Sequence record: DRR378314_778
Direction: 5' to 3' (one strand)
DNA length: 51,329 bases
Made by a program: the position numbers and the translations under genes. The notes beneath the pieces are model-generated. The model ran no database searches. It had not been told where the DNA came from and saw only the letters and a list, made by a program, of their open reading frames with translations. Of this stretch, positions 21,459-51,329 are shown piece by piece. Numbering within the stretch: position 1 is the first letter of the stretch; each line of letters begins with the position of its first letter.

Positions 21459-21462
21459 TTTC

Positions 21463-24115: not shown

Positions 24116-24135
24116 TAGAAATCCATGGCAATTTG

Positions 24136-25203: not shown

Positions 25204-25215
25204 ATTTAAAAAATA

Positions 25216-25235
25216 TTAGTTACGTTATAACATAA
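25216..25235. promoter_or_regulatory. Second Zur box TTAGTTACGTTATAACATAA
   Basis: Reverse complement contains ATGTTATAACGTAAC; same motif as 24095-24115, in the short gap before the porin-like gene. Confidence 0.7.
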
Positions 25236-25255
25236 TGAATACAAAGGTAAGTCAA

Positions 25256-34494: not shown

Positions 34495-35484
34495 TCAGGT
34501 GAATTGACCCTGTTCGTTGACCCGTATGCAGGCCACGGAATGGGTGCCACCAATGGATTTCAGTTGGGGTGATGTTGCTCTGCAGGCATCTGTTGCGCTG
34601 GGGCATCGGCCAGCAAAACGACATCCGGACGGCAGATCGATCGGGCTTGGCGGATCGCCTTGCAGGGTGATCCGCTCCTTGCCTGCCTGACCAATTGAGT
34701 TGGCCGAGGGCACCGCCGAGATGAGCGCCTTTGTATAGGGGTGCTGGGGATTGGTGAAAATCTCCCGCTTGGAGCCGCGTTCGACGATTTGGCCAAGATA
34801 CATCACCGCTATTTCATCGCAGATATGCTGCACAACGGCCAGATCATGGCTGATGAACATATAGGTGAGTTCGTAGGTTTTTTTGAGCCGCATCAACAGA
34901 TTAAGAATTTGCGCCTGAATGGCCACATCAAGGGCCGAAACCGGTTCGTCACAGACGATCAGTTTGGGTTGTGTTGCCAGGGCCCGGGCGATCCCGATGC
35001 GTTGGCGCTGTCCGCCAGAGAACTGATGCGGGAACAGGTTGCGCTGTTCAGGTCGAAGGCCAACCGTGTCAAACAGCTCTGCCACGCGGGCGTCCCGCTC
35101 TTTGGCATTTCCCATTTTCATCAGTTTCAGTGGGCGCTCAACGATGGAGCCGACCCTTTCGCGCGGGTTGAGGGAGGCGTAGGGATCCTGAAACACGATC
35201 TGCATATCCCGCCGGGCATCGCGCAGCGCCTGCCCCTGAATATGCGTGATGTCTTTGTCCTCAAGCGTGATGGATCCGGCCGTTGCCTCTTCCAGTCGGG
35301 CACAGGCGAGCGCGGTTGTGGTCTTGCCAGAGCCGCTTTCTCCGACCAATCCAAAAGCGACGCCTTTGCGAATGGAGAAAGAAACATCGTCGACCGCATG
35401 GACGAAAGCATTGTTTTTCACCGGAAAATAAACTTTTAGGTTTTCCACCTTCAGAAGAGGCGCGTCTTCTTTCAACTCTGTCAT
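34495..35484 (-). CDS. Peptide/nickel ABC ATP-binding subunit (OppF/DppF-like)
   Basis: GESGSGKTT, FSGGQRQR, CDEPVSALD, HPYT, GCRFAGRC...VAC. Confidence 0.93.
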   Translation of the reverse strand: MTELKEDAPLLKVENLKVYFPVKNNAFVHAVDDVSFSIRKGVAFGLVGESGSGKTTTALACARLEEATAGSITLEDKDITHIQGQALRDARRDMQIVFQDPYASLNPRERVGSIVERPLKLMKMGNAKERDARVAELFDTVGLRPEQRNLFPHQFSGGQRQRIGIARALATQPKLIVCDEPVSALDVAIQAQILNLLMRLKKTYELTYMFISHDLAVVQHICDEIAVMYLGQIVERGSKREIFTNPQHPYTKALISAVPSANSIGQAGKERITLQGDPPSPIDLPSGCRFAGRCPSATDACRATSPQLKSIGGTHSVACIRVNEQGQFT

Positions 35485-36476
35485 GTGCGGTTATCCATTT
35501 CGAGCCAGCAGGCAACAGATCGGTCCTGTCCCAACGACAGCAGCGGCGGGATTTCGTTGATACATTCGGGCCGGGCCTGATTGCACCGGGGGGCGAAAGC
35601 ACAACCGGGTTTGCCAAGTTCGCGGGCGCTGGGAACCACTCCGGAGATTTCAAATAGCGGTTCTGCCTCCTCCGGCGGGTCGGGGTTCAGGGTGGGAATA
35701 CAGGAAATCAGGCCGCGGGTGTAGGGATGGCGCGGGTCCTGAATGAAGCGGGCAACGGGTCCCTCTTCAATTTTGCGCCCTGCATACATGACCATGACCC
35801 GGTCGGTCATTTCGGCGACCACACCAATATCATGGGTGATCAGGATAATGGCTGTTTTAGTCTTTTCCTGCAGTTCGCGAAACAAGTCAAAGATCTGGGC
35901 CTGCACCGTCACATCAAGGGCGGTTGTCGGCTCATCAGCGATCAGCAATTTGGGCTCACAGACAAGGGCGATGGCGATCATCACCCGTTGCCGCATTCCC
36001 CCGGATAATTGGTGCGGGTAATCAAAAAAACGTTTTTCCGGGGAGGGAATGCCAACAAGGCGCAGCATTTCAATGGCCCGGTCCTGGGCTTCTTTACGGC
36101 TGACCTTAAAATGTGCCCGTGCGGTTTCGGCAATTTGTTCGCCCACGGTATACACCGGATTGAGCGAGGTCATGGGTTCCTGGAACACCATGGAAATGTC
36201 GTTGCCGCGGATTTGCTCAAGCCGTTTTTCCGGCGCAGCGACCAGGTCTTCGCCTTCGAACAGGATCTGGCCTTTACTGACCCGGCCCGGCGGATTGGGA
36301 ATGAGACCCATGATGGCAAGGGCGGTCATGCTTTTGCCGCACCCGGACTCGCCGACAATGCCCAACGTTTCCCGATAGCCCACGTCAAAGGACAGATCCC
36401 GGATCACAGGGACTTCCTTGCCTTCAATCTGAAAGACAACTTCCAAATCTCTGACAGAAATCAATGCATCAGTCAT
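35481..36476 (-). CDS. Peptide/nickel ABC ATP-binding subunit (OppD/DppD-like)
   Basis: [33 protein letters not shown]. Confidence 0.93.
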
Positions 36477-37366
36477 TAGCGTTTCCTCAGCTTCGGATTG
36501 AGGGCGTCATTAAGGCCATCGCCGATCAGGCTGATGGCAAGAACGGTTAGAAAAATAGCCAGTCCGGGGAAGGTCACACCCCACCAGTTATCCAGAATGT
36601 AGGGGCGGTTATCGCCGATCATGCGGCCCCAGCTCATGGAGTTGGGATCACTGAGACCAAGGAAGGAAAGGCCGGCTTCAAACAGGATCGCCGTGCCGAT
36701 GCTGAGCGCTGCCGAAACAATCAGCGGCGGCGCGGCATTGGGCAGGATCACGGCCCAGATCATGCGCGCATTGCTAGCCCCGATGGACCGCTCGGCACGG
36801 ACATAATCCATATCCCGAAGGCGCATGAATTCCGCCCGGGTAAGCCGTGCGGTGCTGGTCCAGGACACGATCCCGATGGCAATGGCAATATTGGTGAGGC
36901 TGGCTGAAAACAGCATGACCACCACCATGGCAAATAGAAGATTGGGCAGAACCTGGAAAAATTCTGTAATCCGCATCAGAATATTGTCGACCCAGCCGCC
37001 GTAAAATCCGGCCAAAGCCCCGATCGTCACCCCAATGACAACGGTCAAAAGGGCGGCGGCGGCGCCAACTGTAATGGTAATTCGGCCCCCATTAATCAGA
37101 CCGGCGAGGATATCGCGGCCCAGATAATCAGTGCCCAGCAGGAATTCCGATTGTCCCGGCGCGGTGGAGGGCATCCACACCATATCGCGCGGCGCAATGT
37201 CATAGATCATCGGCCCAAAGACTGAAACAAGAATGACAAAGGACAGCAGGATCATGCCGAACACGGCAGAATGATTGGTGCGGAACATCCGCCAGGCCTG
37301 CACCGCGGGAGAGACGGCTTTAGGCTGATCGCTTGGTAGGGATTTGGAAAAAGAAGTATCTGTCAT
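36476..37366 (-). CDS. Peptide/nickel ABC permease (OppC/DppC-like)
   Basis: LGTDYLGRD, EAGLSFLGL, SWGRMI, GDGLNDALNP. Confidence 0.93.
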   Translation of the reverse strand: MTDTSFSKSLPSDQPKAVSPAVQAWRMFRTNHSAVFGMILLSFVILVSVFGPMIYDIAPRDMVWMPSTAPGQSEFLLGTDYLGRDILAGLINGGRITITVGAAAALLTVVIGVTIGALAGFYGGWVDNILMRITEFFQVLPNLLFAMVVVMLFSASLTNIAIAIGIVSWTSTARLTRAEFMRLRDMDYVRAERSIGASNARMIWAVILPNAAPPLIVSAALSIGTAILFEAGLSFLGLSDPNSMSWGRMIGDNRPYILDNWWGVTFPGLAIFLTVLAISLIGDGLNDALNPKLRKR

Positions 37367-38331
37367 TTTGCTTTAATCCGCGGGTCAATAAGCCGATAGG
37401 TGATATCCACCAGGATATTGACGATGAGAACCATCAAGGCCGAAAAGAAGAGGATGCCCAGAAGCGTTGGGGTATCGCGGCGCAGAATGCTTTCAAAGGC
37501 GAGGGTTCCAAGGCCGGGCCAGGCAAATACGGTTTCCACCAGCACAGCGCCTGAAACCACCTGGGCAAACTGTAATCCGGCGAAGGTGATGACGGGAAGG
37601 ACGGCATTTCGAAGGGCATGTTTATAAACGATCAGATAGCGTTTAAGGCCTTTGGCCCGCGCTGTTCGAATATAGTCGCTTTCCATTACTTCCAGCATGC
37701 TGGCACGGGACAGGCGGCTATAAAAAGCAAGATAAATGGAGGCCAGTGTCAAGGTGGGAAGAACCAGATGGCGGCCCACATCCAGCATCGATGCAAAACC
37801 GGTCTGATCGGCATCTGCCGTGCTCATCCCGGCGATGGGGAAAATCGGCAAGGCAACAGAAAAGGCAAGGATCAGCATAATCCCGATCCAGAAGACAGGT
37901 GCGGAGAACCCGGCCAGCGATAACAGGGTCACCAGATTACTCAGAAGAGAGGAGCGTTTCTGGGCAGAGGCAACCCCCAAGGCAGTTCCCACCAGCAGGG
38001 CCAGAAATAAGGCCGACAGAACCAGCAGCAACGTCGCACCGATCCGGTCCATGATCAGGCTGGAAACCGGCGTATCAAAATAATAGGAATATCCAAGATC
38101 ACCGGTCGCCACATTTGCCAGATAAGTGAAGAGCTGGATATGAAATGGTTGATCCAGTCCCATATTGGCCCGGATTTCAGCAATCAATTCAGGAGTGGCA
38201 CCGCCCATTTCCCCGATCAGCACTTCGGCGGGGTCCCCGGGCGCGAGATGGACAAGGGCGAAATTTAAAATCAGGACTGCCAGTAACAGGGCGATGGCGT
38301 TCCCGACGCGCTTGGAAAATGACTTGATCAT
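37363..38331 (-). CDS. Peptide/nickel ABC permease (OppB/DppB-like)
   Basis: PGDPA, GDLGYS, DYIRTARAKGL, HALRNA, ETVFAWPGLG, DPRI. Confidence 0.93.
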   Translation of the reverse strand: MIKSFSKRVGNAIALLLAVLILNFALVHLAPGDPAEVLIGEMGGATPELIAEIRANMGLDQPFHIQLFTYLANVATGDLGYSYYFDTPVSSLIMDRIGATLLLVLSALFLALLVGTALGVASAQKRSSLLSNLVTLLSLAGFSAPVFWIGIMLILAFSVALPIFPIAGMSTADADQTGFASMLDVGRHLVLPTLTLASIYLAFYSRLSRASMLEVMESDYIRTARAKGLKRYLIVYKHALRNAVLPVITFAGLQFAQVVSGAVLVETVFAWPGLGTLAFESILRRDTPTLLGILFFSALMVLIVNILVDITYRLIDPRIKAK

Positions 38332-38359
38332 CCGTTTACTCTAGACTCAGGCTTCATAA

Positions 38360-38397
38360 TCCAGAAGCCCAAACTCATCGGAGGCGGGGCTTCTGGA
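38360..38397 (-). terminator. Intercistronic stem-loop after the SBP gene
   Basis: TCCAGAAGCCC...GGGCTTCTGGA 11-bp stem. Confidence 0.5.
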
Positions 38398-38406
38398 GAC
38401 GGAGAT

Positions 38407-40005
38407 TTATTTTTTCAGATATACATTATGAAATGGCGCCAGCGGGCCAAAGGCCGTGGAGGGTACATTTCCAATTTTGTCTGAATATACGGTCGCTGTG
38501 AAATCCTGCGGCATGTAAATGAAGACCACATCTTCAACCGCTTTTTTCTGGATGTCTGCATAGAGGGCTTTACGCTTGTCTGCGTCTGTCTCGACAGATG
38601 CCTGATCCAGCATTTCATCCATTTTCGGATCACAATAACCCTGAGTGTTGGACCAGATCACATTGCGAATATTGTCGCAATCGAAATGACGGTGAATACC
38701 AATGACCGGATCTGGATAGTTGAAAGAGCCGTTCATGGTTGCATCATATTCGAAGCTGGAAATCCGCTTGACCCATGTGCCGAAATCTGGCGCCTGACGC
38801 AAGTTGACGTTAATTCCCAGTTTGCCCAATTGCAGTTGAATATATTCAGCCATTGGTCCATGCGCATGCTTGGCCCAGCTTGTGATATCCAGTGTAAAGG
38901 CAAACCGCTCACCATTGTCTTTGGCCGGGTAACCGGCTTCATCCAGAAGCTTGGCGGCTAAATCCATATCCGCCGCGTAAGAGGGGACGTCTGCACTGTA
39001 AAAAGCACTGTCAGTGTGCATTGGACCGGTTCCGACCTTGGTGCGCCCGCCAAACAGAACCTTGGCAATGAAGTCCGTGTTAATGGCATGCGACAGGGCT
39101 TTACGAACACGCACATCATCAAATGGCTTGTTACGCAGGTTCAGTTCCAGATAATGGAGGTAACCAATTGCGCCGTACCCTTCCTGGGTAATGAAGACGC
39201 CATCAGCTTTTTCCAGACGGTCCGCGTCATTTGGACGAATGCCGGAAAAGCCCATATAGTCGATGTCACCAGTTTCCATCATCAGAACGCGGGTCAAGCT
39301 GTCCTTGACAATGGAATAGACGATTTTATCCAGGTAAGGTCTGCCTTCGATAAAGAAGTCTTCATTCTTTTCCAGAATCAGACGTTCCGCTGGCTTATTC
39401 TCGGCCACTTTAAAAGGACCGGAGCCAACAACATTTTCCATGTTCCGTGGATGGGTTTTGACCTTTTGCCCATCGCCATAAACATGTTTGGGAAGGATGG
39501 GCATCAAGAGCGGCTGCAGGGAAAGCAACAGCCCTGGAATTGGTTTGGAGAGACGGAAAACAACGGTTTCCGCATCAGGTGTTTCTACGGCGCTGACTTT
39601 GCCGAACATGGCTTTGCCGAAGGGATGGTTGTTTTTCACGGTATCCAGTGAAAAGGCCACATCTTCGGATGTAATCGGTTTGCCGTCGTGAAAATTCGCG
39701 CCGGAAATCAGCTTGAACGTATAGGTCAGGTTGTCGTCGGAGACGGTCCAGCTTTTCGCCAGATAAGGACTTGCAGAAAAGTCGTCTTCGATGAGAACCA
39801 GCCCGGCAAAAATTTGCGAGCCGGGTGACCCTGTTGCGGCACCGGATTGGACCGCCGGGTTCAGACTACGATAGCCAGTAGAGGCTGTGTTCAGTGTACC
39901 ACCTGATGTCGGTTCAGCGCTTGTCGTTACGGCCCCTGCCATAACAAAAGAAGCGACTAATGGCGCGACAATAGATAGCGTTTTCAAGATTTTCATTGAT
40001 CGCAT
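38407..40005 (-). CDS. Family 5 (OppA/DppA) substrate-binding protein
   Basis: Signal peptide, LAKSW, FHDGKPITSEDV, VGSGPF, RVRKAL, LLDEAGY. Confidence 0.92.
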   Translation of the reverse strand: MRSMKILKTLSIVAPLVASFVMAGAVTTSAEPTSGGTLNTASTGYRSLNPAVQSGAATGSPGSQIFAGLVLIEDDFSASPYLAKSWTVSDDNLTYTFKLISGANFHDGKPITSEDVAFSLDTVKNNHPFGKAMFGKVSAVETPDAETVVFRLSKPIPGLLLSLQPLLMPILPKHVYGDGQKVKTHPRNMENVVGSGPFKVAENKPAERLILEKNEDFFIEGRPYLDKIVYSIVKDSLTRVLMMETGDIDYMGFSGIRPNDADRLEKADGVFITQEGYGAIGYLHYLELNLRNKPFDDVRVRKALSHAINTDFIAKVLFGGRTKVGTGPMHTDSAFYSADVPSYAADMDLAAKLLDEAGYPAKDNGERFAFTLDITSWAKHAHGPMAEYIQLQLGKLGINVNLRQAPDFGTWVKRISSFEYDATMNGSFNYPDPVIGIHRHFDCDNIRNVIWSNTQGYCDPKMDEMLDQASVETDADKRKALYADIQKKAVEDVVFIYMPQDFTATVYSDKIGNVPSTAFGPLAPFHNVYLKK

Positions 40006-40092
40006 ATCGGTTTGTTCTCCCAGTTGGATGTATTAGTGTTTTAACAACCGCGCAATAAAAGGTTGCACTCTACCTGAAAAATTGCAAGATAA

Positions 40093-40110
40093 ATTTCATT
40101 ATTCCGAAAT
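40093..40110. promoter_or_regulatory. Palindrome ATTTCA-N6-CGAAAT, candidate operator of the XRE-cupin regulator
   Basis: Dyad in the 124-bp divergent promoter between the oppA-like gene and the regulator. Confidence 0.35.
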
Positions 40111-40129
40111 AAGGGCAACATGATTTCAT

Positions 40130-40741
40130 ATGCAGGCAAATATTCTCCTTAAAGCTTCAGCCGAGCAAACCCTTGAAACTTCAGTGGTTCCCGTGGGTAA
40201 ACAAATCCGTGAATTGCGTAAAGCCAAAGGCCTCACGCTTTCAGATATGAAGGCATTGACCGGTCGATCGGTCGGTAATCTGAGTGAAATGGAGCGGGGA
40301 ACCAGCCCCGTGACCATCGAGGCGCTGGGAATTATTGCGGATGCGCTGGATGTGAATATCAACTGGTTTTTCAGTGGCAGTGCAATTGCCGAACCCGCAG
40401 AACGGGATGTGATTGTCCGCAAGAATGCCAGAAGAGAAATTAACCTCAGTCAGGCGGGAACCCGCGAAGAGCTGTTGTCGCCGCATCTGGCGGGACAGTT
40501 GGAACTTATACTGACCACATTTGCCCCTGGTGCCGGTACCGGCGATGCTGGACGGATTCGCAAAGGCGAGGAAGGCGGCATGGTGATTTCAGGAACCCTG
40601 GAGCTGACCGATAATGATCAAACCTATCTGCTGGAAGCCGGAGACAGTTTTCAACTGATCGGGGCAGGACGCCACTGGTGCTATAATCCTGGTGATGAGG
40701 ACACGGTGGTTTTTTGGGCCATGACGCCTGTTGCCTATTGA
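40130..40741 (+). CDS. XRE-HTH plus cupin regulator (PuuR-like)
   Basis: IRELRKAKGLTL...LSEMERG HTH; GEEGGMVISG...LEAGDS...H cupin domain. Confidence 0.9.
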   Translation: MQANILLKASAEQTLETSVVPVGKQIRELRKAKGLTLSDMKALTGRSVGNLSEMERGTSPVTIEALGIIADALDVNINWFFSGSAIAEPAERDVIVRKNARREINLSQAGTREELLSPHLAGQLELILTTFAPGAGTGDAGRIRKGEEGGMVISGTLELTDNDQTYLLEAGDSFQLIGAGRHWCYNPGDEDTVVFWAMTPVAY

Positions 40742-40773
40742 ATACAACAAAAAACAAAGAAAGTGAGACGGTC

Positions 40774-42426
40774 ATGAGTGAGCTAGTAGTCTATACGGCC
40801 CGACAAATTCATACGATGAACCCTTCCATGCCAACGGCTTCGGCGGTTGCGGTCCGTGATGACCAGATTATTGAGGTGGGGACGCTGGAAAGCCTGCAGC
40901 CGTGGCTGGCATCCCACGAGCATCGAATTGATGACCGGTTTGCAGACAAAATCATGATGCCCGGCTTTATTGATCCGCATTTGCACCCGACTTTGGGGGC
41001 CTTGCTGTTATGCTGTCATTTTATTACGGCGATGGAATGGAAGCTGCCGGATCGAACAGTCTCACCTGCCGCCACGCCGGAGGCTTATCTCAGCCGGATC
41101 AATGAAATTAATACCAGTATCGAGGATCCCGAAGAGCCCCTGATCACTTGGGGGTATCATAAAATCTGGCATGGTGTTGTGGATCGGCGGACATTGAATG
41201 AGGTTTCCCGCAGCCGCCCGGTCATCGTCTGGCAGCGCTCTTTTCATGAGATCATTATGAACGATGCGGCCATTGACTGGCTGAAACTGGATCGCACGGA
41301 GCTGGAACGCCATCCGCAGATCGAGCTGCAGACCGGCCGGTTTTACGAGACGGGTCTGGCAGTGGCAACTCAGGGGCTGAACTTATATCTGTTTGAACCG
41401 ACCCGATATCGCAAGGGGCTGGAGCTGGTCAAAAAAGCCATTCATAAGGGCGGCCATACCACCATTGGGGAGCTGGCATATCCGCTGTTGAATGATGAGG
41501 TGGAATGGCAATTGCTGACGGAAACGATGGAGCGGGATGATGTTCCGTTTCGCATGCAGATTGTCCCGCGCGGTGCGTTGCGTGGGGTGACTGAAGGGCG
41601 CGCAGACGAAGAGGTTAAGCGGGTTCAGAGCTATCAGGATCGGAGCACGCACCGTTTGCAGTTTGGCAATGGGATCAAGCTTTTCACCGATGGCGGCTTT
41701 TTCGCCGAGCTGATGCAGATGCAGGAGCCGGGCTTTATCGATGGGCATCATGGCGAGTGGCTGATGGCGCCGGAGATGTTTGAAACCCTGGCCCGTGCCT
41801 TTTGGAATGAAGGCAAGCGCATTCACGTGCATTGCACTGGCGATCTGGGACTGGAGCTGGCGCTGGATACGCTTGATAAGCTGCAGTTTGAACGGCCCCG
41901 GTTTAATCACCGTTTTACCATTGAGCATTTTGGAGTTTCCACACCTGAACAGGTGCGGCGGATCAAGGATCTGGGGGCGATTGTTTCGGCAAATGTATAT
42001 TATCTGCATGAGCTGGGTGAGGCCTACTGGATGAATTCCATCGGTTATGAGCGGGCCTCGCAAATGGCACGGCTGGGGACACTGGCCCGTCATGATGTCA
42101 CGACGGCCTTGCATTCAGACTTCACCATGGCCCCGGCACTGCCTTTGAATTCGGCCTGGGTGGCGGTGAACCGTATTGCCGAGTCTGGTGCGGTTCTGGG
42201 TGAAAATGAAAAAATCAGTGTTCAGGCCGCCATGCGGGCGATTACCATTGATGCAGCCTATGTGATCGGCATGGAACATGAGGTCGGCTCCATTCGGGCG
42301 GGCAAGAAAGCGGATTTCACCATTTTGGAGCAGGACCCGTTTGAAGTTGCGCCGGAAACCCTCAAGGATATTCCGATCTGGGGCACTGTGTTCGAAGGGG
42401 GAATCTTCCCGATTGAAGACGAATGA
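40774..42426 (+). CDS. Amidohydrolase_3 family metal-dependent hydrolase (YtcJ/NfdA-like)
   Basis: PGFIDPHLH, IKLFTDG, HVHCTGD, IEH, HSD, GSIRAGKKADF. ATG 40774. Confidence 0.9.
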   Translation: MSELVVYTARQIHTMNPSMPTASAVAVRDDQIIEVGTLESLQPWLASHEHRIDDRFADKIMMPGFIDPHLHPTLGALLLCCHFITAMEWKLPDRTVSPAATPEAYLSRINEINTSIEDPEEPLITWGYHKIWHGVVDRRTLNEVSRSRPVIVWQRSFHEIIMNDAAIDWLKLDRTELERHPQIELQTGRFYETGLAVATQGLNLYLFEPTRYRKGLELVKKAIHKGGHTTIGELAYPLLNDEVEWQLLTETMERDDVPFRMQIVPRGALRGVTEGRADEEVKRVQSYQDRSTHRLQFGNGIKLFTDGGFFAELMQMQEPGFIDGHHGEWLMAPEMFETLARAFWNEGKRIHVHCTGDLGLELALDTLDKLQFERPRFNHRFTIEHFGVSTPEQVRRIKDLGAIVSANVYYLHELGEAYWMNSIGYERASQMARLGTLARHDVTTALHSDFTMAPALPLNSAWVAVNRIAESGAVLGENEKISVQAAMRAITIDAAYVIGMEHEVGSIRAGKKADFTILEQDPFEVAPETLKDIPIWGTVFEGGIFPIEDE

Positions 42427-43340
42427 TCAGCGATAAGCATATTCCTGTTACAGTCCTCAGTGGCTATCTGGGCGCTGGAAAAACGACCGTTATCAACCAT
42501 TTGCTGAAAGAAAGTGGCGGGCGGCGGCTGGCCGTTCTGGTGAATGACTTTGGCGCGATCAATGTGGATGCCAGCCTGATCAGCCAGCAGACCGAAAATG
42601 CCATCAGCCTGACCAATGGTTGCGTGTGTTGTTCCATCACGGATGATTTGGGCGACACGCTGGAGGCAATTCGCGCCTGGTCAGAACCACCTGAACAAGT
42701 CCTGCTGGAGGCGAGCGGCGTTGCCGATCCGCTCCGACTGGCGCGATTGGCCGGTCATTGGCCCGGTTTTCGGCTGGATGCGGTGGTTACCGCCGTGGAT
42801 ATGGAAACTGTCCAAACGCGGGTGTGGGATAAATTTGTCGGGCAATTGGTCTCCTCTCAGATCAGGGCGGCGGATCTGCTGGTGATGACCAAGGTGGATC
42901 TACTGGAGGCAGCTCAAAAATCCAGAATAGAGACCTGGCTGCAGGGCCAGGCACCTGGCATCGCCACGATCCATGCGCCGAACGGGCAGGTCCCCCCAGA
43001 ACTGATCATGGGCGCGACGGTGCATCGCAGAGAAGACGCGGATGCTGGCGAAGAAATGCCAGAGATCAAACCGCAGTTTGAACGCGGCCACTGGGTCAGT
43101 ACGTCTCCGCTTGCCTGTCAGCGCCTGAGCGATCAGCTGGATCAGTTTCCAGCCAGTGTTCATCGGCTAAAAGGGGTGTTTGAAGAGGCGTCAAGTGGTC
43201 GGAAAATTCTGGTTCAAAAGGTCGGCGCACGCCATGATTTTGTCACAGCCGATGCGTCCATGCCCTTGGGCTTTGTATTGATCGGCGTTGGAGATAAATC
43301 AGATTTGATGCAGGCGATGCACTTGCTGGAACAGGCGTAA
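42423..43340 (+). CDS. CobW/COG0523 G3E GTPase metallochaperone, no His tract
   Basis: GYLGAGKTT, VNDFG, NGCVCC, EASGVADP, TKVD, RLKG; ATGA-coupled to the amidohydrolase. Confidence 0.9.
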   Translation: MISDKHIPVTVLSGYLGAGKTTVINHLLKESGGRRLAVLVNDFGAINVDASLISQQTENAISLTNGCVCCSITDDLGDTLEAIRAWSEPPEQVLLEASGVADPLRLARLAGHWPGFRLDAVVTAVDMETVQTRVWDKFVGQLVSSQIRAADLLVMTKVDLLEAAQKSRIETWLQGQAPGIATIHAPNGQVPPELIMGATVHRREDADAGEEMPEIKPQFERGHWVSTSPLACQRLSDQLDQFPASVHRLKGVFEEASSGRKILVQKVGARHDFVTADASMPLGFVLIGVGDKSDLMQAMHLLEQA

Positions 43341-43347
43341 CGGCCGT

Positions 43348-43818
43348 TTACTGGCCCGCTTCTTCCGCGTTCACCCCTTCCATCAGCTCGCCAAGCAGGG
43401 ATTTAAGGTGGGTGATTTTTTCCGGACCGAGATTGGCGTAGAAGGCATCATTATATTTATTCACATGTTTGCGCAGGCGCGCATATAGCTCCAGCCCCTG
43501 ATCGGTGATGAAGACAAGCATCCGGCGCTGATCTTCCGGGTCTGGCAGGCGATGAACCAATCCTTTGGCCACCATACGATCGAGCATTTTGGTCAAGGCC
43601 GGGTGATTCATCAGGACCCGGTCCGCCAATTCGCCCATGGAGCGGCCAGCTTCATCACTGATCACATCCAGGATCCGCCAATGTTCTACCTGAACGCCTT
43701 CTGCTTTTAGAATCTTGTCCAGCCCCAGATGGATATTCCGATGAGCCTGCGCCAGTAAATAAGGCACATAATCCTCAATGGATGCAGGTTTTCTGCTGCC
43801 TTTGTCCGTGGCCGCCAT
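43348..43818 (-). CDS. MarR-family regulator
   Basis: MGELA...LTKMLDRM...LVHRLPDPEDQRR...ITDQG winged helix. Confidence 0.92.
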   Translation of the reverse strand: MAATDKGSRKPASIEDYVPYLLAQAHRNIHLGLDKILKAEGVQVEHWRILDVISDEAGRSMGELADRVLMNHPALTKMLDRMVAKGLVHRLPDPEDQRRMLVFITDQGLELYARLRKHVNKYNDAFYANLGPEKITHLKSLLGELMEGVNAEEAGQ

Positions 43819-43860: not shown

Positions 43861-43892
43861 TACTTAAATTGGAAAATAATATATTTCAAGTA
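43861..43892. promoter_or_regulatory. Candidate MarR operator: TACTTAAATTGGAAAATAA plus inverted ATTTCAAGTA
   Basis: Same motif recurs in tandem at 45148-45189; lies in the MarR/AmiC divergent gap. Confidence 0.6.
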
Positions 43893-43928
43893 CTGGGAGC
43901 GAGTATTTGTGTTTTTGTGAGAGGTATC

Positions 43929-45092
43929 ATGTTGGGGGACATGTTTCCATCAGTTAGCGCCGCCAGCAGTCGGCCAGTATTTCCATACGGGGCGTTTTTT
44001 ACGGACCCGCTGGATGACGCACGGGATTTTCTGATCAGTCGCCAGAAATATCGCATCGGTCTGTTTGTCCCTTTGAGTGGATCGGCCGGGATTTGGGGGC
44101 CGTCCAGTATTGCCAGTGCTGAAGTGGCGATTGCCGAGCTGAACGCTGCGCACGGCATCCGCGATCTGGAAGTAGAGCTGGTGTTGGTGGATGCGGCGTT
44201 TGAAAATGATGATGAGCTGTATTTCCAGACCAATGAATTGATCGAACGTGGTGAGATCCAGGCCATAGTCGGGATGCATATCAGTGCAGTTCGACAGAAA
44301 CTGGTCAAGGTGGTCGCCGGACGGGTTCCTTATGTTTATACCGCCCTTTATGAAGGGGGCGAGTCGGCACCGGGTGTCTATACAATCGGGGAGACACCGG
44401 AATGTCAGTTGGGTCCAGCCCTGCAAAGCCTGACGGATCGGCATCGGCTGCGCAATTGGGCCCTGATCGGCAATGAATATGTGTGGCCGCGGGCATCCCA
44501 CGCTTATGCACGGCAATATATCAAATCGCTGGGCGGGAATGTAACGCTGGAGCGGTATTTACAAATGGGCAAGGGCGTCAATTATCGGCTGCTCGAAGAA
44601 TTGAGCCGATCCGGATCTGATGGGGTATTGTTATCTCTGGTCGGGCAGGATGCCATTGATTTTAATCGCGCTTTTGGGGAATTGGGGCTGGACCGGAAAA
44701 TGGTGCGCTTGTCCTGCGCCATTGAAGAGAACGGGCTGCTGGCCATTGGCTCCAACAATTTGAAACGGTTATATTCGTCCGCCTCTTATTTCTCCAGCCT
44801 GGATACGCCGGAGAATAACAGTTTCAAGGAACGCTATTACAATCTGCATGGGATCCGGGCACCGATGCTGAATTTTATGGGCCAATCCCTGTATGAGGGA
44901 CTGCATTTTCTGTCCTGCCTGATGGAAAATACCCCCAAAGAGACTCCGGGATTTCGATTATCTCCGTCAAAACCTTTGGACTATCGCAGTGCAAGAGGTG
45001 CCGTTTATTTGAATAACCGGCAGAAAAATATGCCCATCTTTCTGGGCAGGGCCGACGGCTATAGCTTCTCTCTCGTCGATAATCTTTATTAA
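43929..45092 (+). CDS. AmiC-like cytoplasmic amide-binding regulatory protein
   Basis: PLSGSAGIWGPS, GMHISAVR, YTALYEGG, GNEYVWPR; no signal peptide. ATG 43929 after GAGG. Confidence 0.82.
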   Translation: MLGDMFPSVSAASSRPVFPYGAFFTDPLDDARDFLISRQKYRIGLFVPLSGSAGIWGPSSIASAEVAIAELNAAHGIRDLEVELVLVDAAFENDDELYFQTNELIERGEIQAIVGMHISAVRQKLVKVVAGRVPYVYTALYEGGESAPGVYTIGETPECQLGPALQSLTDRHRLRNWALIGNEYVWPRASHAYARQYIKSLGGNVTLERYLQMGKGVNYRLLEELSRSGSDGVLLSLVGQDAIDFNRAFGELGLDRKMVRLSCAIEENGLLAIGSNNLKRLYSSASYFSSLDTPENNSFKERYYNLHGIRAPMLNFMGQSLYEGLHFLSCLMENTPKETPGFRLSPSKPLDYRSARGAVYLNNRQKNMPIFLGRADGYSFSLVDNLY

Positions 45093-45147: not shown

Positions 45148-45189
45148 TATTTGAAACGGAAAACAAATTACTTGAAATGGAAAATAAAT
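45148..45189. repeat. Tandem 21-bp repeat TATTTGAAACGGAAAACAAAT / TACTTGAAATGGAAAATAAAT (candidate MarR operators)
   Basis: 18/21 identity between copies; matches 43861-43879; upstream of the flotillin-ABC operon. Confidence 0.65.
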
Positions 45190-45250
45190 TAGTTACGCTA
45201 ATCCTGTCTTCGGGCAAAGGGGCCCAGTGATAAGAAAAGGGAGGCTGAGC

Positions 45251-46882
45251 GTGATTTGGATTGTCGGTATTATCGCTGCAATCATTCTCTTGGTGATCGG
45301 GATCCTGTTCCTGAACAGGTTCTATGTAAAATCCACCCGGGAAAGTGCTCTGGTCAGAACCGGTGCCGGAGGACAGAAGGTTGTCATTGACGGGGGTTGC
45401 TTTGCCCTGCCAATCCTGCATCGGGTGCAAAAGGTGACCATGCGTACCGCCCCGGTGGATATTGTTCTGGAAAAAGGTCAGTCGGTGATCACCGCAGATA
45501 AAATGCGGGTGGATGTGGAAATGGAATTTCATGTTCGGGTGGATCCGACAACTGATGGAGTGGCCACTGCGGCGCAGGCCCTGGGGTCGAAATCCAACCG
45601 GATTGAAGAGGTCAAAGAGCTGATCGATGGCAAGCTGGTCAACGCTATTCGGTCTGTTGGCGCAACCAAAACTCTGGAAGAGCTGCACACCGCACGGGGA
45701 CAGTATTCCAAAGAGATTGCCGAAGAGATTAGCGACAGTATCGCCAGAAGTGGCCTGCTTTTGGACTCGGCCTCCCTACAGCGGCTCGACCAGACGCCTT
45801 TTGCCGGACTGGATGAGCAGAATATCTTTAATGCGGTTGGCATGCGGCGTCTGTCAGAAGTTGTGGCCCAAAGCCGCAAAGAGCGCGTCAAAATCGAGGC
45901 GGAAGCCGATATCGCCGTGCGCCAGAGCCAGCTTGAAGAAAGCCAGCGCCGTCTGGAGATCGAGCGGATGCAGCGCCAGAGTGAAATCGACACCCAGCAG
46001 CAGATCGAATTGATGTCAGCGAAATCTGATGCGGAAATCGCCCGTATTCGCTCGGAAACCGCGCGTCAGGCTCGCGAAGCAGAACTGACCGATGATCAAA
46101 AGCTCAAGCAGGCGGAAATCGATCGGGATCTCAGCCTTCGCGAATGGGAAATGAAAGCGCTGCTGAAGGTTGAGCAGACCAAGGTTGCCAACGCTATCCA
46201 GCTCAAAACCAAACAGACCGAGGAAATCGGTGCTGACGTGACTTATGAAACGGCCCGTATCCAGATGATCGAAGCGCAGGAAGCCACCCAGACCCGCAAA
46301 GACGTGGTGGTTGCAGAACGGACCCACAAGTTGGCGATGATGAAGTCCGATCAGGAGAGCGAGCTGGAAGAAAGCCGTATCAAGACCCAGGTGGACAGCC
46401 TGATGAAGACGGCCAAGGCCGAAGCCGATGCTGTGACCGTCAAGGCGGGCGCAGAAAAGGAAAAACTGAAAGCCGAGGCCGAAGGGCGGGCCGCGGTCAT
46501 CGAGGCGGAAAATTCCCTCAGCATGGAGCAGATCGAGATGCAGATCGAATTGCATCGCCTGAACAAACTGCCGGAAATTGCCACGCAGATGATGAAACCG
46601 GTCGAAAAGATCGACTCTATCCGGATCAACCATATTGGGGGTTTGGGTTCCGAAGGCGGTACAGGGGGAAGTTCCTCCTCGCCGTTTAACAAAGCCATGG
46701 AATCGGTGCTTGGAATGGCAGTGCAACTGCCCGCCATGAAAAGCATGGGGGCGGAAATCGGGATGGACTTTGATGCCAACCTTGCCAGCCGTTTCTCGGA
46801 CTCCATGAGCCGGTCAAAACTACCCAGCGATGATGACACCGCTGGAGATGCAGATACTCGTCAACAGGGAGATCGCAAATGA
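45251..46882 (+). CDS. Flotillin (SPFH/Band 7 plus coiled-coil Flot domain, YqiK-like)
   Basis: N-terminal TM helix, ALVRTGAGG, VITADKMRVDV, LDQT...FNAVGMRRL, EA-rich coiled coil, MMKPVEKIDSIRI. GTG 45251 after AGGGAGG. Confidence 0.9.
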   Translation: MIWIVGIIAAIILLVIGILFLNRFYVKSTRESALVRTGAGGQKVVIDGGCFALPILHRVQKVTMRTAPVDIVLEKGQSVITADKMRVDVEMEFHVRVDPTTDGVATAAQALGSKSNRIEEVKELIDGKLVNAIRSVGATKTLEELHTARGQYSKEIAEEISDSIARSGLLLDSASLQRLDQTPFAGLDEQNIFNAVGMRRLSEVVAQSRKERVKIEAEADIAVRQSQLEESQRRLEIERMQRQSEIDTQQQIELMSAKSDAEIARIRSETARQAREAELTDDQKLKQAEIDRDLSLREWEMKALLKVEQTKVANAIQLKTKQTEEIGADVTYETARIQMIEAQEATQTRKDVVVAERTHKLAMMKSDQESELEESRIKTQVDSLMKTAKAEADAVTVKAGAEKEKLKAEAEGRAAVIEAENSLSMEQIEMQIELHRLNKLPEIATQMMKPVEKIDSIRINHIGGLGSEGGTGGSSSSPFNKAMESVLGMAVQLPAMKSMGAEIGMDFDANLASRFSDSMSRSKLPSDDDTAGDADTRQQGDRK

Positions 46883-48105
46883 CGGTAAACAGAAGACATT
46901 TTATGGCAGGTGCCGCGGCAGCAGCGGGGGCAGCGGCCACTTTCAACCCGGCATCGGTATTTGCCGCTGACAGCATCAAGTTCGGTTCCATCCTGGATCA
47001 GTCCGGTATCTTTGATGCTTACGGCAAGCCAATGGATATGGCCATGCGTCTGGCCATCGATGAAATCAACGAAGCGGGCGGCCTGAACGGTCAAAAGGTG
47101 GATGTGACCGCCTATGATACCCAGTCAGATATCGCCCTTTATACGCAGTATGGGCAGAAACTGGTGCGTCAGGATGATGTGGATGTGGTGCATGGCGGTA
47201 TTCTGTCCGCCTCACGCGAAGCGATCCGCCAGACCATGCGGAAATCCAAGACCCTTTATTTTTATAACGTTCTGTATGAAGGCGGCGTGTGTGATCGCAA
47301 TATCTTTGTTACCGGCGTCACCCCGTCTCAGCAGGTTGAAGTTCTGATCCCGCATGCGGTGAAAAAATGGGGCAAGAAGATCTATGTGCTGGCGGCTGAC
47401 TATAATTATGGTCAGATCACCGCCAACTGGGTCAAGAAATATGCCCAGGACGCCGGAGCGGCGGTCGTCGAAGTGGATTTCTTTCCCTTGGATGTGGCTG
47501 ATTTTGGCTCCACCATTGCGAAAATTCAGGCCGCTGATCCGGATATGATCGTTTCTGCCTTGGTTGGCGGGGCGCATTTGTCCTTCTATCGTCAATGGGC
47601 GGCTGCGGGCATGAACAAGAAAATTCCACTGGCGTCCACTACATTGGGCGTGGGGAATGAGCATAAAGTCCTGACCCCGGAAGAGGGGGATGGTTTCCTG
47701 GTGGCTTATAACTATGCGCCGACACTGGAAACTGCTGTGGCTAAGTCTTTCCATGAGAAATGGGCGGCGAAATATGGGGATACCAGCCTTGTTCACGAAA
47801 TTGCCGTTTCCAATTATCAGGGCGTTCATCTCTGGGCGGAAGGCGTGCGCAAAGCCGGCGGTGTTGACCGTGATGCCATGATCAAGGCGCTGGAAAGCGG
47901 TGTTTCCATCGAGGGTCCGGGCGGTAAGGTCAGCATCGATCCGCAAACCCATCATGCCACGCTTGATGTGCATGTGATGGAGTTCAAGAACCAGCAGATG
48001 CAGGTTCTGGAAAGCATCAGCCAGCGGCCCCCCCTGGATACGCAAGGGGTTTGTAACCTGAAAGAAAATCCAAACGATAACACCCAATATGAGATCAAGA
48101 TCTAA
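46879..48105 (+). CDS. Urea/short-chain amide ABC substrate-binding protein (UrtA/FmdD-like), Tat signal
   Basis: NRRHFMAG leader, SASREAIR, YNVLYEGG, ADYNYG; ATGA overlap with the flotillin gene. Confidence 0.88.
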   Translation: MTVNRRHFMAGAAAAAGAAATFNPASVFAADSIKFGSILDQSGIFDAYGKPMDMAMRLAIDEINEAGGLNGQKVDVTAYDTQSDIALYTQYGQKLVRQDDVDVVHGGILSASREAIRQTMRKSKTLYFYNVLYEGGVCDRNIFVTGVTPSQQVEVLIPHAVKKWGKKIYVLAADYNYGQITANWVKKYAQDAGAAVVEVDFFPLDVADFGSTIAKIQAADPDMIVSALVGGAHLSFYRQWAAAGMNKKIPLASTTLGVGNEHKVLTPEEGDGFLVAYNYAPTLETAVAKSFHEKWAAKYGDTSLVHEIAVSNYQGVHLWAEGVRKAGGVDRDAMIKALESGVSIEGPGGKVSIDPQTHHATLDVHVMEFKNQQMQVLESISQRPPLDTQGVCNLKENPNDNTQYEIKI

Positions 48106-48151
48106 CCTGATCTGAATTTGGATCGTTTGAGCGGGATGTTTTCTCCCGGAG

Positions 48152-48191
48152 ACAGTCACCGGCCCGCGCGCTGCGCCGGACCGGTGACTGT
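48152..48191 (+). terminator. Intercistronic stem-loop after the SBP gene
   Basis: ACAGTCACCGG...CCGGTGACTGT 11-bp stem. Confidence 0.5.
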
Positions 48192-48223
48192 ACCCTGATC
48201 GGGGCGTTTTTTAAGGAACAGTC

Positions 48224-49090
48224 ATGGATCTAGCTGCAGTCATATTCGTTGAAACCGCCTATGCGGTTGCCAGTCTGGTACTGGTCAGCATTGGTCTTGC
48301 CGTCGTGTTTGGCATGATGCGGGTGATCAATCTGGCGCATGGGGAATTCATGATGATGGGCGGGTATGCGACCATCGTCACCGTGAAGCTGGGGGTTCCG
48401 ATCTATCTGGCCATTCTGGTGGTTGCCCCGCTGATCGTCGGGATTATCGGATTGGTGGTCGAGCGGCTGGTGATCCGCCATTTATATGGCCGACTGGTTG
48501 ATAGCATGCTTGCCACCTGGGGGCTCAGTCTGTTGTTTGTCGGGCTTGCCACCATGATTTTTGGCAATACCACCACCGGCATTTCAACCCCGATCAGTGG
48601 CTTCCAGCTCGGCAATTATCAGGTGAATGGCTACAACCTGTTTGTGATTGTGCTGGTCATCGTCATGGTGATCGCGGGGTATCTGTTGCTCAAAAAGACA
48701 CGGCTTGGGCTGATTGCCCGGGGAACCATGCAGGGGTCCGAGATGGCGGCGGCGCTCGGCTACAATCCGGAGCGGGTCTATATGCTGACCTTCATGGCGG
48801 GCGCGGCCTTATCCGGGCTTGCCGGGGCGGTTCTGGCGCCGCTGGTAGGTCTGGTGCCCAGCACAGGCGCGGCCTATATCGCCAAGGCCTTTATAGCAGT
48901 TATTGCGGGTGGACCGTCAATTATTGCCGGGCTGTTGTCCAGCTCCACCATCTTTGGGGTGATCAATCAGTTCTTCACTTTTTCCATCTCCCCCATCGTC
49001 GGTGAGATTGCCCTTCTGGTGGCAGCAATTGTCCTGCTGCGCCTGATGCCGCAGGGCATCACCGGGCGCTTCTTCAAAGGAAAACTCTAA
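48224..49090 (+). CDS. Amide/branched-chain-type ABC permease (UrtB/LivH-like)
   Basis: FGMMRVINLAHGEF, LATWGLSL, PQGI. Confidence 0.92.
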   Translation: MDLAAVIFVETAYAVASLVLVSIGLAVVFGMMRVINLAHGEFMMMGGYATIVTVKLGVPIYLAILVVAPLIVGIIGLVVERLVIRHLYGRLVDSMLATWGLSLLFVGLATMIFGNTTTGISTPISGFQLGNYQVNGYNLFVIVLVIVMVIAGYLLLKKTRLGLIARGTMQGSEMAAALGYNPERVYMLTFMAGAALSGLAGAVLAPLVGLVPSTGAAYIAKAFIAVIAGGPSIIAGLLSSSTIFGVINQFFTFSISPIVGEIALLVAAIVLLRLMPQGITGRFFKGKL

Positions 49091-50157
49091 TGCGTGGACA
49101 ATGGGCAAAGACGTTGGGTGGGCTGATTATCGCAGCCGTGATCCTATTTGTGATCCTGCCGCTTTTTATTGAAACCTATACCCTCAACCTTCTGATTGTT
49201 TACGGCATGTTGGGGTTGAGCCTGGGTCTTGTCTGGGGTTTCGGCGGGATCCTTTGCTTTGGGCAGGCTGCTTTTTTCGGGCTTGGGGCGTATAGCTATG
49301 CCATCTCTGCCATCAATTTCGGGGAAAGCACCCTCCCTTTCCTGATCGGTATTCTGGTGCCGCTGATCGTGGCGTTTCTACTGGGTGCAATGATGTTTTA
49401 TGGGCGGCTGGGAAGCGTCTATCTGGGTGTCATTACTCTTGTCTTTACCCTCATCCTGTTTCGGTTCATGAACTCTACCGCCGGGCCGGAATATATTATC
49501 GGAACGGCACGTCTGGGCGGGTTTAATGGGATTCCGGGCTTTCAAACCCTGAATATCCCGGGGGATCCGGAAGCATATCTGTGGGGGGATGAGCTGTATT
49601 ATGTCTCTGCCGTTCTGCTGATTTTGGTGTATCTGTTCCTGAAATGGCTGCTGCAAACCTCCTTTGGCCGGGTTGCCATCGCTGTTCGTGAAAATGAAAC
49701 GCGGGTGGAGCTGATGGGCTATGACATCCGCATTCGAAAATCCATCCTGTTTGCCATCGGCGGTGGGGTCGCCGGTCTTTCCGGGGTGCTATACGCCAGC
49801 TGGGCGGAAATTGTAACGCCCGGACTGTTCAGCCTGGGCCAATCGGCAGAAGTGATTATCTGGTGCATCGTTGGTGGGCTGGGCACACTGACCGGGCCGA
49901 TCGTCGGCGGCATGATCATCGGGCTGCTGAAATTCTATCTGGGACAGCAGTCTGTCATCGATAATTCGGTATTTTTGGGGCTCATCCTGATCCTGTCGGT
50001 TCTGTTTCTGCCAAATGGCGTGGTCCCGGCGCTGGAGCGGGGGGCACGCCGTTTATTCACCGGCAAGGGCCGCAAATATCGCCGGCGGGGCGGCGGGCGA
50101 AGCGTCCGCCGGGTGGATGAGGCAGAGACGGAAAAGTCGGAGGTGTCCCATGGCTGA
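49090..50157 (+). CDS. Amide/branched-chain-type ABC permease (UrtC/LivM-like)
   Basis: WGFGGILCFGQAAFFGLGAY, AVRENETR, VGGLGTL. Confidence 0.92.
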   Translation: MRGQWAKTLGGLIIAAVILFVILPLFIETYTLNLLIVYGMLGLSLGLVWGFGGILCFGQAAFFGLGAYSYAISAINFGESTLPFLIGILVPLIVAFLLGAMMFYGRLGSVYLGVITLVFTLILFRFMNSTAGPEYIIGTARLGGFNGIPGFQTLNIPGDPEAYLWGDELYYVSAVLLILVYLFLKWLLQTSFGRVAIAVRENETRVELMGYDIRIRKSILFAIGGGVAGLSGVLYASWAEIVTPGLFSLGQSAEVIIWCIVGGLGTLTGPIVGGMIIGLLKFYLGQQSVIDNSVFLGLILILSVLFLPNGVVPALERGARRLFTGKGRKYRRRGGGRSVRRVDEAETEKSEVSHG

Positions 50158-50866
50158 ACTGGTTCTGGAGACAACCGGACTGACCATGCGCTTTGGTGGG
50201 GTAACGGCGGTCAGCAATGTGGATTTCAAGCTGGAGGATCGGGAGCTTCGCTGCCTGATCGGGCCCAATGGCGCCGGCAAGAGTACTTTTTTCAAATGCC
50301 TGACGGGTCTGTTGAAGCCCACATCCGGAGAAATTTATATCGGCGATGAAGAAACCACGGGTTGGGATCCTCACCGCATTGCCAGCCTTGGGGTCGCCAC
50401 CAAAACCCAGGTGCCAAATGTCATGGACAGCCTGACAGCAGAGGAAAATATCTGGCTGTCGGCCCGGCGCTTTCATGATAGCCGCGGGGCGGATCGCCGC
50501 GCCGCCGAAGTGATCGAAGAGCTGAAACTGAGCCTCATTGCCAAAAAGACCCTGGATCGCCTCGCCCATGGGGAGCGCCAACGCATTGAACTTGGCATTG
50601 TAGCCGCGGCGGATCCGTGGCTGGTGCTGCTTGATGAGCCGGCGGCGGGCCTGACCGGGGAAGAAGTCGCCGATATGTCGGACATTATTCATCGGCTGAA
50701 CGAACGGGCGGCGGTTATCATTGTTGAGCATGACATGCAGTTTATCCGCTCCATCGCCCGCAAAGTGACCGTGTTCAATCGCGGAGAAGTGCTGATGGAG
50801 GACAGCGTTGATGTGGTTCTGTCAGATCCTACGGTTCGGGATGTTTATATCGGAAAAAGGGCCTGA
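50150..50866 (+). CDS. ABC ATP-binding subunit (UrtD/LivG-like)
   Basis: GPNGAGKS, LAHGERQ, LLDEPAAG, VEHDM. ATG 50150 after GGAGG. Confidence 0.93.
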   Translation: MAELVLETTGLTMRFGGVTAVSNVDFKLEDRELRCLIGPNGAGKSTFFKCLTGLLKPTSGEIYIGDEETTGWDPHRIASLGVATKTQVPNVMDSLTAEENIWLSARRFHDSRGADRRAAEVIEELKLSLIAKKTLDRLAHGERQRIELGIVAAADPWLVLLDEPAAGLTGEEVADMSDIIHRLNERAAVIIVEHDMQFIRSIARKVTVFNRGEVLMEDSVDVVLSDPTVRDVYIGKRA

Positions 50867-50868
50867 GT

Positions 50869-51329
50869 ATGGGTAAGTCGCCTGCAATTTTGGATGTTCG
50901 AAGCCTGTCCGGGGGATATGGCAAGGTCCCGATCCTTAAAGGGATTACTTTAAGCGTGGATCGAAATGAGATTGTCGGGATCCTTGGTCATAATGGGATG
51001 GGCAAGACCACCTTGCTCAAAACCATTGCCGGATTTTTAAAGCCAACGGCCGGAACCCTGAAATATCACGACACGGAAATTACCGGCCGTAAAGCCCATT
51101 GGCGGGCGCAGGAAGGTCTGGGGTATGTGCCGCAAGGGCGGGGAATTTTCCCTAATTTGAGTGTGCGCGAAAACCTGTTATTTGCCTATCAGGAGGTGTC
51201 TGAAAAAGGCGAGGAGGAGATGCTGGACGAAGTTCTTAGCCTCTTTCCGCGCCTGGAGCGGTTGCTGGATCGGGAGGGGGGCGCTCTTTCCGGGGGGGAG
51301 CAACAGCTTCTGGCACTGGCCAGATGTTT
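50869..51329 (+). CDS. ABC ATP-binding subunit (UrtE/LivF-like); 3' end runs off the window
   Basis: Not in ORF track. MGKSPAILDV...GHNGMGKTTLL...YVPQGRGIFPNLSVRENL...LSGGEQQLLALAR. Confidence 0.92.
   Translation, partial: MGKSPAILDVRSLSGGYGKVPILKGITLSVDRNEIVGILGHNGMGKTTLLKTIAGFLKPTAGTLKYHDTEITGRKAHWRAQEGLGYVPQGRGIFPNLSVRENLLFAYQEVSEKGEEEMLDEVLSLFPRLERLLDREGGALSGGEQQLLALARC

Follow-up and report, generated by a model that had tools for sequence, protein, structure and literature searches.

The window analysed here, a stretch of 51,329 nucleotides from sequence record DRR378314_778, carries a YqiK-like flotillin gene (45251..46882, plus strand) that is the first gene of an operon encoding an ATP-binding cassette (ABC) importer. 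This flotillin, part of a conserved nine-gene cassette, is on balance probably a dedicated SPFH scaffold, most simply a cage, around the importer and an enzyme tethered to it. What the sequences themselves show is the order of the genes, the fusion of two of them in relatives with catalytic motifs intact, a conserved sequence box upstream of the flotillin, the flotillin clade and the co-occurrence of flotillin and fusion.

Flotillin and the ATPase-amidase fusion

A scan of GTDB gave 267 relatives of the flotillin, of which the best 80 were analysed (40-82% identity; mostly Alphaproteobacteria, with some gamma- and betaproteobacteria). All of these 80 carry an orthologue of the binding-protein gene directly after flotillin, and the closest of them, a metagenome-assembled genome of Sneathiella, shares 80-94% identity across all eight genes. 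The flotillin is conserved at about 44%, versus 65-75% for the transporter genes. In these relatives the last ATPase of the importer is a protein of about 800 residues that combines ABC_tran and Amidase; the two lie in one frame in 73 of the 80 loci, and the other seven end at a contig edge. Three of the 73 fusions are broken, two by insertions of ~2.5-2.8 kb (L051, L062) and one by frameshifts (L080). The partial ATPase 2 gene at the end of the window is 82% identical to the fusion of locus L001, and the fusion is probably present in the window's own genome as well. The amidase part of L001 scores 771.6 bits against NF005565 (cut-off 545), with 3a1k as its nearest structure, and the gene that follows the fusion encodes an acyl-coenzyme A (acyl-CoA) ligase (NF009233 above cut-off) in 72 of 73 loci.

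Both halves of the fusion retain their motifs. Among 108 fused open reading frames, duplicates included, the Lys and nucleophile motifs of the amidase are present in all 108 and GGSS in 105, and Walker A, signature and Walker B of the ATPase are kept in 106-107. The linker between the two parts is unconserved and spans 28-124 residues. Within 99 distinct fusions (5 without the anchor motif were dropped) an internal start precedes the amidase, ATG in 95 and GTG in one, with G at positions -10/-9 in 91%/84% while the encoded amino acids vary. Its mean anti-Shine-Dalgarno pairing energy of -6.0 kcal/mol compares with -2.3 at 3102 further ATGs in frame and with -5.75 at 12 starts of free amidases. 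Given this conserved start with a Shine-Dalgarno-like signal, one gene likely yields both a tethered and a free amidase. The closest solved amidase is described as a dimer (PMC11732141), and a tethered plus a free copy would likely fit a dimeric enzyme on a transporter with one copy of the fused ATPase. The fusion gene is also found on three Sulfitobacter-group plasmids, NZ_CP018077.1 (L346), NZ_CP045377.1 and NZ_CP022418.1, the whole cassette having been read in the first. Sulfitobacter alexandrii AM1-D1 (BOO69_RS19125-19165) is a carrier in culture. RefSeq labels the 793-residue fusion of NZ_CP018077.1 just 'amidase', a name that hides the ATPase fusion in databases.

Co-occurrence was assessed from the side of the binding protein, in a sample of 401 alphaproteobacterial, 351 Rhizobiales-order and 351 Rhodobacterales-order genomes. 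Besides the three centre genomes, 89 places were fetched, with 88 distinct proteins of which 83 were scorable and 5 unscorable; these loci may overlap the best 80 relatives, and the two sets of counts are not to be summed. Flotillin and fusion occur together in 34 of the 83 scorable loci and are both missing from 49, with no locus (0 and 0) carrying one without the other. At 25 of the 49 flotillin-less loci a free amidase is encoded that belongs to the same family and has the same pocket residues, and 14 of the 49 have amiC. Flotillin tracks the fusion rather than the transporter.

Phylogenies place the amide-linked flotillins in one clade (44 rows, SH-aLRT 100), the fused amidases in one (support 94) and the transporter core in one (support 87). 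A quick binding-protein tree shows two flotillin-linked clades, with which one origin is still compatible. The original prediction had envisaged a linkage to amide ABC genes wider than this genome, a clade of amide-ABC-linked flotillins and a transporter-amidase complex; the first two were borne out by the 80 relatives and the flotillin tree, and the third exists in relatives as the ATPase::amidase gene fusion.

Layout, control and cargo of the cassette

The genes and sites of the cassette within the window are as follows.

43348..43818, minus strand: divergent marR-family regulator (PF12802/PF01047), likely repressor of the operon
43869..45092, plus strand: AmiC-like ligand-binding protein (PF13458/PF13433) with ATG 43929 as its likely start, probably a cytoplasmic amide sensor
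45151..45183, plus strand: two direct copies of a 12-nt box (45151, 45172; spacing 21), candidate MarR operator
45172..45199, plus strand: candidate promoter TTGAAA, 16 nt, TACGCT, putative, read from the sequence
45251..46882, plus strand: YqiK-like flotillin, 543 residues (open reading frame 45227/45251-46882; PF01145, PF15975)
46879..48105, plus strand: substrate-binding protein of twin-arginine translocation (Tat) type, UrtA/AmiC fold, 408 residues (family models, TIGR01409)
48152..48191, no strand: 15-bp inverted repeat in the binding-protein/permease spacer, possible mRNA-stabilising hairpin
48224..49090, plus strand: permease 1, LivH/UrtB type (PF02653; below the Urt cut-offs)
49090..50157, plus strand: permease 2, LivM/UrtC type (PF02653)
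50150..50866, plus strand: ABC ATPase 1, LivG/UrtD type (PF00005)
50869..51329, plus strand: ABC ATPase 2, LivF/UrtE type, 5' part, the gene being cut by the window end (PF00005)

With its binding protein, a pair of BPD_transp_2 permeases and a pair of ABC ATPases, the system has the layout of a HAAT (LIV-type) importer. As originally predicted, flotillin heads the importer operon and its TGA (46880-46882) overlaps the ATG of the binding-protein gene (46879) as ATGA; the gene ahead of it is not an NfeD/YqiJ gene, an AmiC-like gene lying upstream and then the divergent marR. The translational coupling read into the overlap did not hold up as a conserved or meaningful feature, since among the 77 scorable junctions of the 80 relatives only seven overlap, with gaps of 1-20 nt in 12, 21-60 nt in 45 and more than 60 nt in 13. 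The spacer with the candidate hairpin has a folding z of -2 or below in 55 of 103 related spacers when compared with mononucleotide shuffles, a weak control.

The likely start of flotillin is GTG 45251, behind GGAGG at 45240-45244, in agreement with the start in relatives. The protein matches PF01145 with 59.5 bits (cut-off 23.6; E 6e-16) and PF15975 with 123.7 bits (cut-off 27; E 6e-36), and begins with a membrane helix (hydropathy peak 3.3). Its predicted structure (pLDDT 72, pTM 0.41) comprises an SPFH domain and a 207-residue helix, with model helices at 2-24 and 192-398. The best Foldseek matches of the model are to the flotillin cage (9l3g/9bq2, E 4e-14), followed by prohibitin and HflKC, and by sequence no solved structure matched. 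According to the positive-inside rule, basic residues after a membrane helix mark the cytoplasmic side; such residues stand behind the N-terminal helix, so the flotillin body is predicted to be cytoplasmic, on the same side as the ATPase and the amidase. A cage about as large as that of human flotillin would have room for two ATPase domains plus a dimer of the amidase. When flotillin residues 1-215 were modelled together with the two permeases, with alignments unused, the complex scored 0.00, which was counted neither for nor against an interaction.

Of the 80 related loci, 71 have marR upstream and 70 the AmiC-like gene, some of the absences being contig ends. The AmiC-like protein has neither a hydrophobic nor a twin-arginine leader in 10 of 10 relatives scorable by motif search. 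The 12-nt box, TTGAAWHRGAAA, recurs in 69 of the 83 distinct spacers between amiC and flotillin (mean 0.025 and maximum 1 in shuffles), with at least two copies in 49 spacers and an inverted copy in 32; across the 51-kb window it occurs only at 45151 and 45172, which strengthens the earlier suggestion of MarR operators here. The second copy starts with the -35-like hexamer TTGAAA. In relatives a TA dinucleotide follows this hexamer by 16-18 nt in 34 counts, versus 5 at other spacings; in a sigma-70 consensus scan sites were no commoner than in shuffles, and the candidate promoter was not called. Direct and inverted copies, with a -35-like hexamer at the start of the box, are as would be expected of a repressor site. 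Mycobacterium smegmatis AmiA/AmiC, a MarR-type repressor with AmiC, resembles the marR-amiC pair seen here. The box lies ahead of flotillin and not ahead of the binding-protein gene: none of 34 stretches preceding that gene in flotillin-bearing loci contains it, nor do any of 14 amiC loci that lack flotillin. Twelve flotillin-bearing loci form a subclade that is mostly without the marR/amiC pair upstream, and the box is absent from the 12 loci without amiC. The cobW and amidohydrolase genes further upstream lie outside the cassette, cobW being present in one of the 80 relatives.

The N-terminus of the binding protein is of the twin-arginine type (NRRHF; TIGR01409 19.8 bits, cut-off 16.7). UrtA is reported to contact urea via S122, Q144, Y190 and N246, with W120 also needed, and mutating W120, Q144 or N246 impairs urea binding (PMC10392092). 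In the window protein S122, Y141, E146 and Y190 are kept, and W120 is replaced by I, Q144 by L and N246 by V; the I and V are found in 35 of 35 flotillin-linked binding proteins. The Urt models TIGR03407-03411 and the archaeal Urt models all stay below cut-off, although the partial last ATPase cannot be judged. Of the earlier amide/urea assignment, urea is rejected as the likely cargo: with the urea residues replaced and an amidase and a ligase linked to the importer in relatives, the likelier substrate is a carboxamide that bears an alkyl or aryl group. What follows the ligase varies between loci, with an acyl-CoA dehydrogenase in 6 of the 46 where a candidate open reading frame is present, so this gene does not fix the substrate. 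A nitrile hydratase is encoded elsewhere in four of five carrier genomes, a lead from carriers only, with no non-carrier control.

In the model that we propose, an amide would bind the AmiC-like sensor, which would free MarR from the box over the -35 element. The Tat-exported binding protein would hand the amide to the importer, and the tethered amidase, its dimer completed by free amidase from the internal start, would split it at the pore exit into an acid and ammonia; the acyl-CoA ligase would then trap the acid as acyl-CoA. The flotillin, anchored N-out/C-in on the ATPase/amidase side, would oligomerise to an SPFH cage, the least secure step; the cage would hold the importer-enzyme parts together and slow the escape of the small permeant substrate and products.

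Three other groups of genes in the window were noted. At 34495-43340 an oligopeptide-type ABC importer on the minus strand diverges from genes for an XRE-cupin regulator, for an Amidohydro_3 enzyme and for a cobW-like GTPase; in relatives this group is unlinked to the flotillin cassette. At 16836-23886 a fatty-acid-desaturase-like gene and a phosphonate-type binding protein lie ahead of an MttB methyltransferase and two flavin adenine dinucleotide (FAD) oxidoreductases, one of which has GcvT domains, an odd pairing. A second cobW-like GTPase, a 409-residue open reading frame without a Pfam match at E 1e-8 and DUF1826 (24133-27131) likely form a zinc-limitation cluster.

Other flotillins without an NfeD partner

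To place the amide-linked flotillins among others, 401 alphaproteobacterial genomes were searched with PF15975, which gave 85 places; the 68 strong ones (E < 1e-28) were classed by context, with Pfam on representatives and BLAST for the rest, and of the 17 weak ones G218:C11 was examined. The contexts are yqiJ (23), the amide importer (12), a LIV-type importer with ATPase::UPF0261 (17), an importer with permease::LigB(::esterase) (5), a tailed ATPase (4) and FArhodopsin with a sugar-type importer (7). The original prediction had treated NfeD-less flotillins as exceptional, a premise that fails here: 45 of the 68 lack yqiJ, and all 45 lie within ABC-importer clusters. This suggests that two-thirds of alphaproteobacterial flotillins are dedicated to a pathway rather than general stress factors. 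Nor was PF07290 (yqiJ) found in any of the five genomes whose sole Flot match is the amide-linked flotillin. Where yqiJ is linked, the order pspA-yqiJ-yqiK was seen in L227, L248-L250, L253 and L255.

The largest NfeD-less class repeats the pattern of the amide system with another enzyme. A search with PF06792 gave 58 UPF0261 places, of which 18 are long frames, all ATPase fusions (14 by BLAST, 4 by full-length match). Flotillin lies within 8 kb of all 18 (one frameshifted) and near one of the 40 free UPF0261 genes, that one being a second copy beside a fused operon; locus L243 has the same transporter with a free UPF0261 and no flotillin at the usual place. The linkers of these fusions measure 87-136 residues, and a conserved internal start was not found in the 11 UPF0261 fusions analysed for it. 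Their clusters (L208-L216, L226, L247, L265-L267) also contain genes for a phosphoenolpyruvate (PEP)-hydrolase-like triosephosphate isomerase (TIM) barrel, a long flotillin and an SRPBCC-type cyclase.

The permease::LigB(::esterase) proteins were seen from the flotillin side in the genome sample (5 of 5), with flotillin divergently transcribed. Metagenomes gave 78 loci for the permease::LigB protein, and flotillin is present at six of six fusions with ~10 kb upstream, in a system without an unfused control. At L222-L224, L258, L259, L268-L272 and L296 the fusion protein (~1030 residues) combines the permease with a subunit of a LigB-type dioxygenase and, in many cases, an esterase, and the flotillins form their own clade. 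At L217-L219 and L252 a LivF-type ATPase with a 170-200 residue tail of no Pfam family stands beside aldehyde and short-chain dehydrogenases and a flotillin; the extension has Pro/Ala-rich linkers and short conserved helical motifs, and is possibly an enzyme-docking tail. In a single 3.1-Mb genome, G069 (L095, L215, L220, L222), there are four different flotillins without NfeD, and each belongs to a separate importer cluster. Flotillin-like giants with frames of 858-969 residues and weak Flot scores were also met (e.g. G319:C71, G069:C1:1573353).

An approximately unbiased test on 55 flotillins, with 11 amide rows kept, rejected a single clade of NfeD-less flotillins (p-AU 1e-6). The tree is unrooted and quick, and therefore implies at least two changes and no fixed number of recruitments. 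Candidate recruitments, at least two and up to four, are ATPase::amidase, ATPase::UPF0261, permease::LigB::esterase and the tailed ATPase beside aldehyde/alcohol dehydrogenases. A more general proposal, possible but rather doubtful, is that NfeD-less proteobacterial flotillins were recruited two to four times as shells of a metabolic nanocompartment, an SPFH cage closed off by the inner face of the membrane and enclosing an ABC importer and tethered catabolic enzymes.

Competing readings and known systems

Several points weigh against a cage around the importer. The support for it is wholly genomic, and the fusion is not visible within the window. The 25 free-amidase loci have the pathway genes without flotillin, and one unscored locus (L156, genome G917), which has lost flotillin to an insertion element, has the transporter and an intact fusion; upstream of them an inverted flotillin remnant of ~55 codons adjoins an IS21-like transposase (L156:10257-11063), and flotillin was not found elsewhere in genome G917. 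The fusion and flotillin of the amide system arose once, so that the 34:49 split represents one event with near-complete retention and a Fisher p-value on it is meaningless; carriage of the cassette on plasmids makes inheritance as a block easy. In the UPF0261 test L243 is the one locus where the same transporter, unfused, can be compared directly. A rhodopsin and a sugar-type importer accompany seven NfeD-less flotillins, and no enzyme fusion was identified there; four others go with an ATPase whose tail matches no family.

Alternatively, the flotillin could be a co-induced assembly or quality-control factor, a holdase or protease shield for a fusion with a floppy linker, without any lasting reaction chamber. 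We regard this as unlikely, even though flotillin tracks fusions with long disordered linkers (28-124 residues in the amide and 87-136 in the UPF0261 system) whatever the enzyme, and Staphylococcus aureus FloA is reported to stabilise unfolded proteins (PMC13086221). The FloA role involves NfeD (PMC13086221), which is missing here, and a general holdase would need no per-pathway clades, yet G069 carries four NfeD-less types. A flotillin that never touches the transporter and instead shields the membrane from the imported compound, or from the acid or aldehyde made of it, or makes the membrane more fluid in response, seems improbable: the linked pathways do yield acids, aldehydes or ring-cleavage products, and the literature ties SPFH proteins to stress tolerance, but free-amidase loci with the same chemistry lack flotillin in 25 of 25 cases and free UPF0261 genes in 39 of 40.

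We give as little credence to a frozen accident, in which flotillin was inserted once between promoter and binding-protein gene and has since ridden in a mobile cassette. Its single origin, the plasmid copies, the one loss and the lower conservation relative to the transporter would fit such a history; records from alpha-, gamma- and betaproteobacteria with identities as low as 40% nevertheless still have a full-length frame, at a cost of 1.6 kb, and the association recurs with unrelated fusions in other flotillin clades. The reading of the system as UrtABCDE, a urea importer to which flotillin is accessory, is very improbable. Urt proteins are the best family and structure matches of the system, but the Urt models stay below cut-off, UrtA W120, Q144 and N246 are I, L and V here, and the linked enzymes are an amidase and a ligase, with no urease.

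The function and clients of bacterial flotillins are a long-open question. The cassette offers a candidate client, a predicted inducible pathway and natural controls in loci with the same importer, a free amidase and no flotillin, and flotillin function is thereby directly testable in culturable roseobacters. Caging, if true, would be a membrane-capped addition to bacterial microcompartments and a design for transport-coupled catalysis, and in a nanocompartment imported permeant or reactive molecules would be converted before they escape. In the literature searched (most subscription papers outside its scope, supplements excluded) neither the cassette nor a flotillin with a transporter-enzyme fusion is described, although genome-context tables could mention them.

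A precedent for an NfeD-less, partner-dedicated flotillin is the co-transcribed, transporter-rich FArhodopsin cluster (PMC10308929), represented by 7 loci in our census, which differs in its flotillin clade, its rhodopsin partner and the lack of an identified enzyme fusion. More generally, SPFH2 proteins pair with NfeD2, 17 genomes having SPFH2 without NfeD2 (PMC2636767), and deletion of yqiK or of the Pseudomonas aeruginosa SPFH genes is reported to have little phenotype (PMC2636767, PMC13086221). Like YqiJ-YqiK (SPFH2/NfeD2) and Bacillus subtilis YuaF-FloT, the window flotillin has Band_7 and Flot, ~550 residues and one N-terminal anchor, and it is nested among yqiJ-linked flotillins in the tree. 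It differs in having no NfeD in cis, and none found in trans in five of five carrier genomes, in lying in a catabolic operon with its own regulator, and in its FloT score (59 of the 700-bit cut-off). The SPFH cages HflKC-FtsH, human flotillin, stomatin-aquaporin 1 and QmcA-YbbJ (PDB 7wi3, 9bq2, 9zd2, 8z5g) share its fold, with wall helices of up to 189 residues compared with 207 in the model. The human flotillin cage measures 32 nm across, and small molecules are described as probably unable to pass its wall (10.1101/2024.05.09.593390); the client predicted here differs in being an ABC importer with a tethered catabolic enzyme.

The importer shares the five-subunit HAAT architecture and fold of UrtABCDE, but falls below all cut-offs and has the urea residues replaced. 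Mesorhizobium MeAmi is described as an amide importer with a cytosolic AmiC-type sensor (10.1101/2024.02.22.581678), and the amide-inducible operons in general (P. aeruginosa amiEBCRS, M. smegmatis acetamidase, MeAmi) likewise unite a cytoplasmic AmiC-type sensor, an importer and an amidase in one locus. The present cassette differs from them in its ATPase-fused amidase-signature enzyme with an internal start, its acyl-CoA ligase, its flotillin and the lack of an ANTAR regulator. The fused amidase of the relatives matches that of Rhodococcus sp. N-771 (PDB 3a1k/3a1i; NF005565) over the whole domain (E 2e-136), keeping the Ser-cisSer-Lys motifs and the N-terminal helical domain, and differs from it by its fusion to an ATPase.

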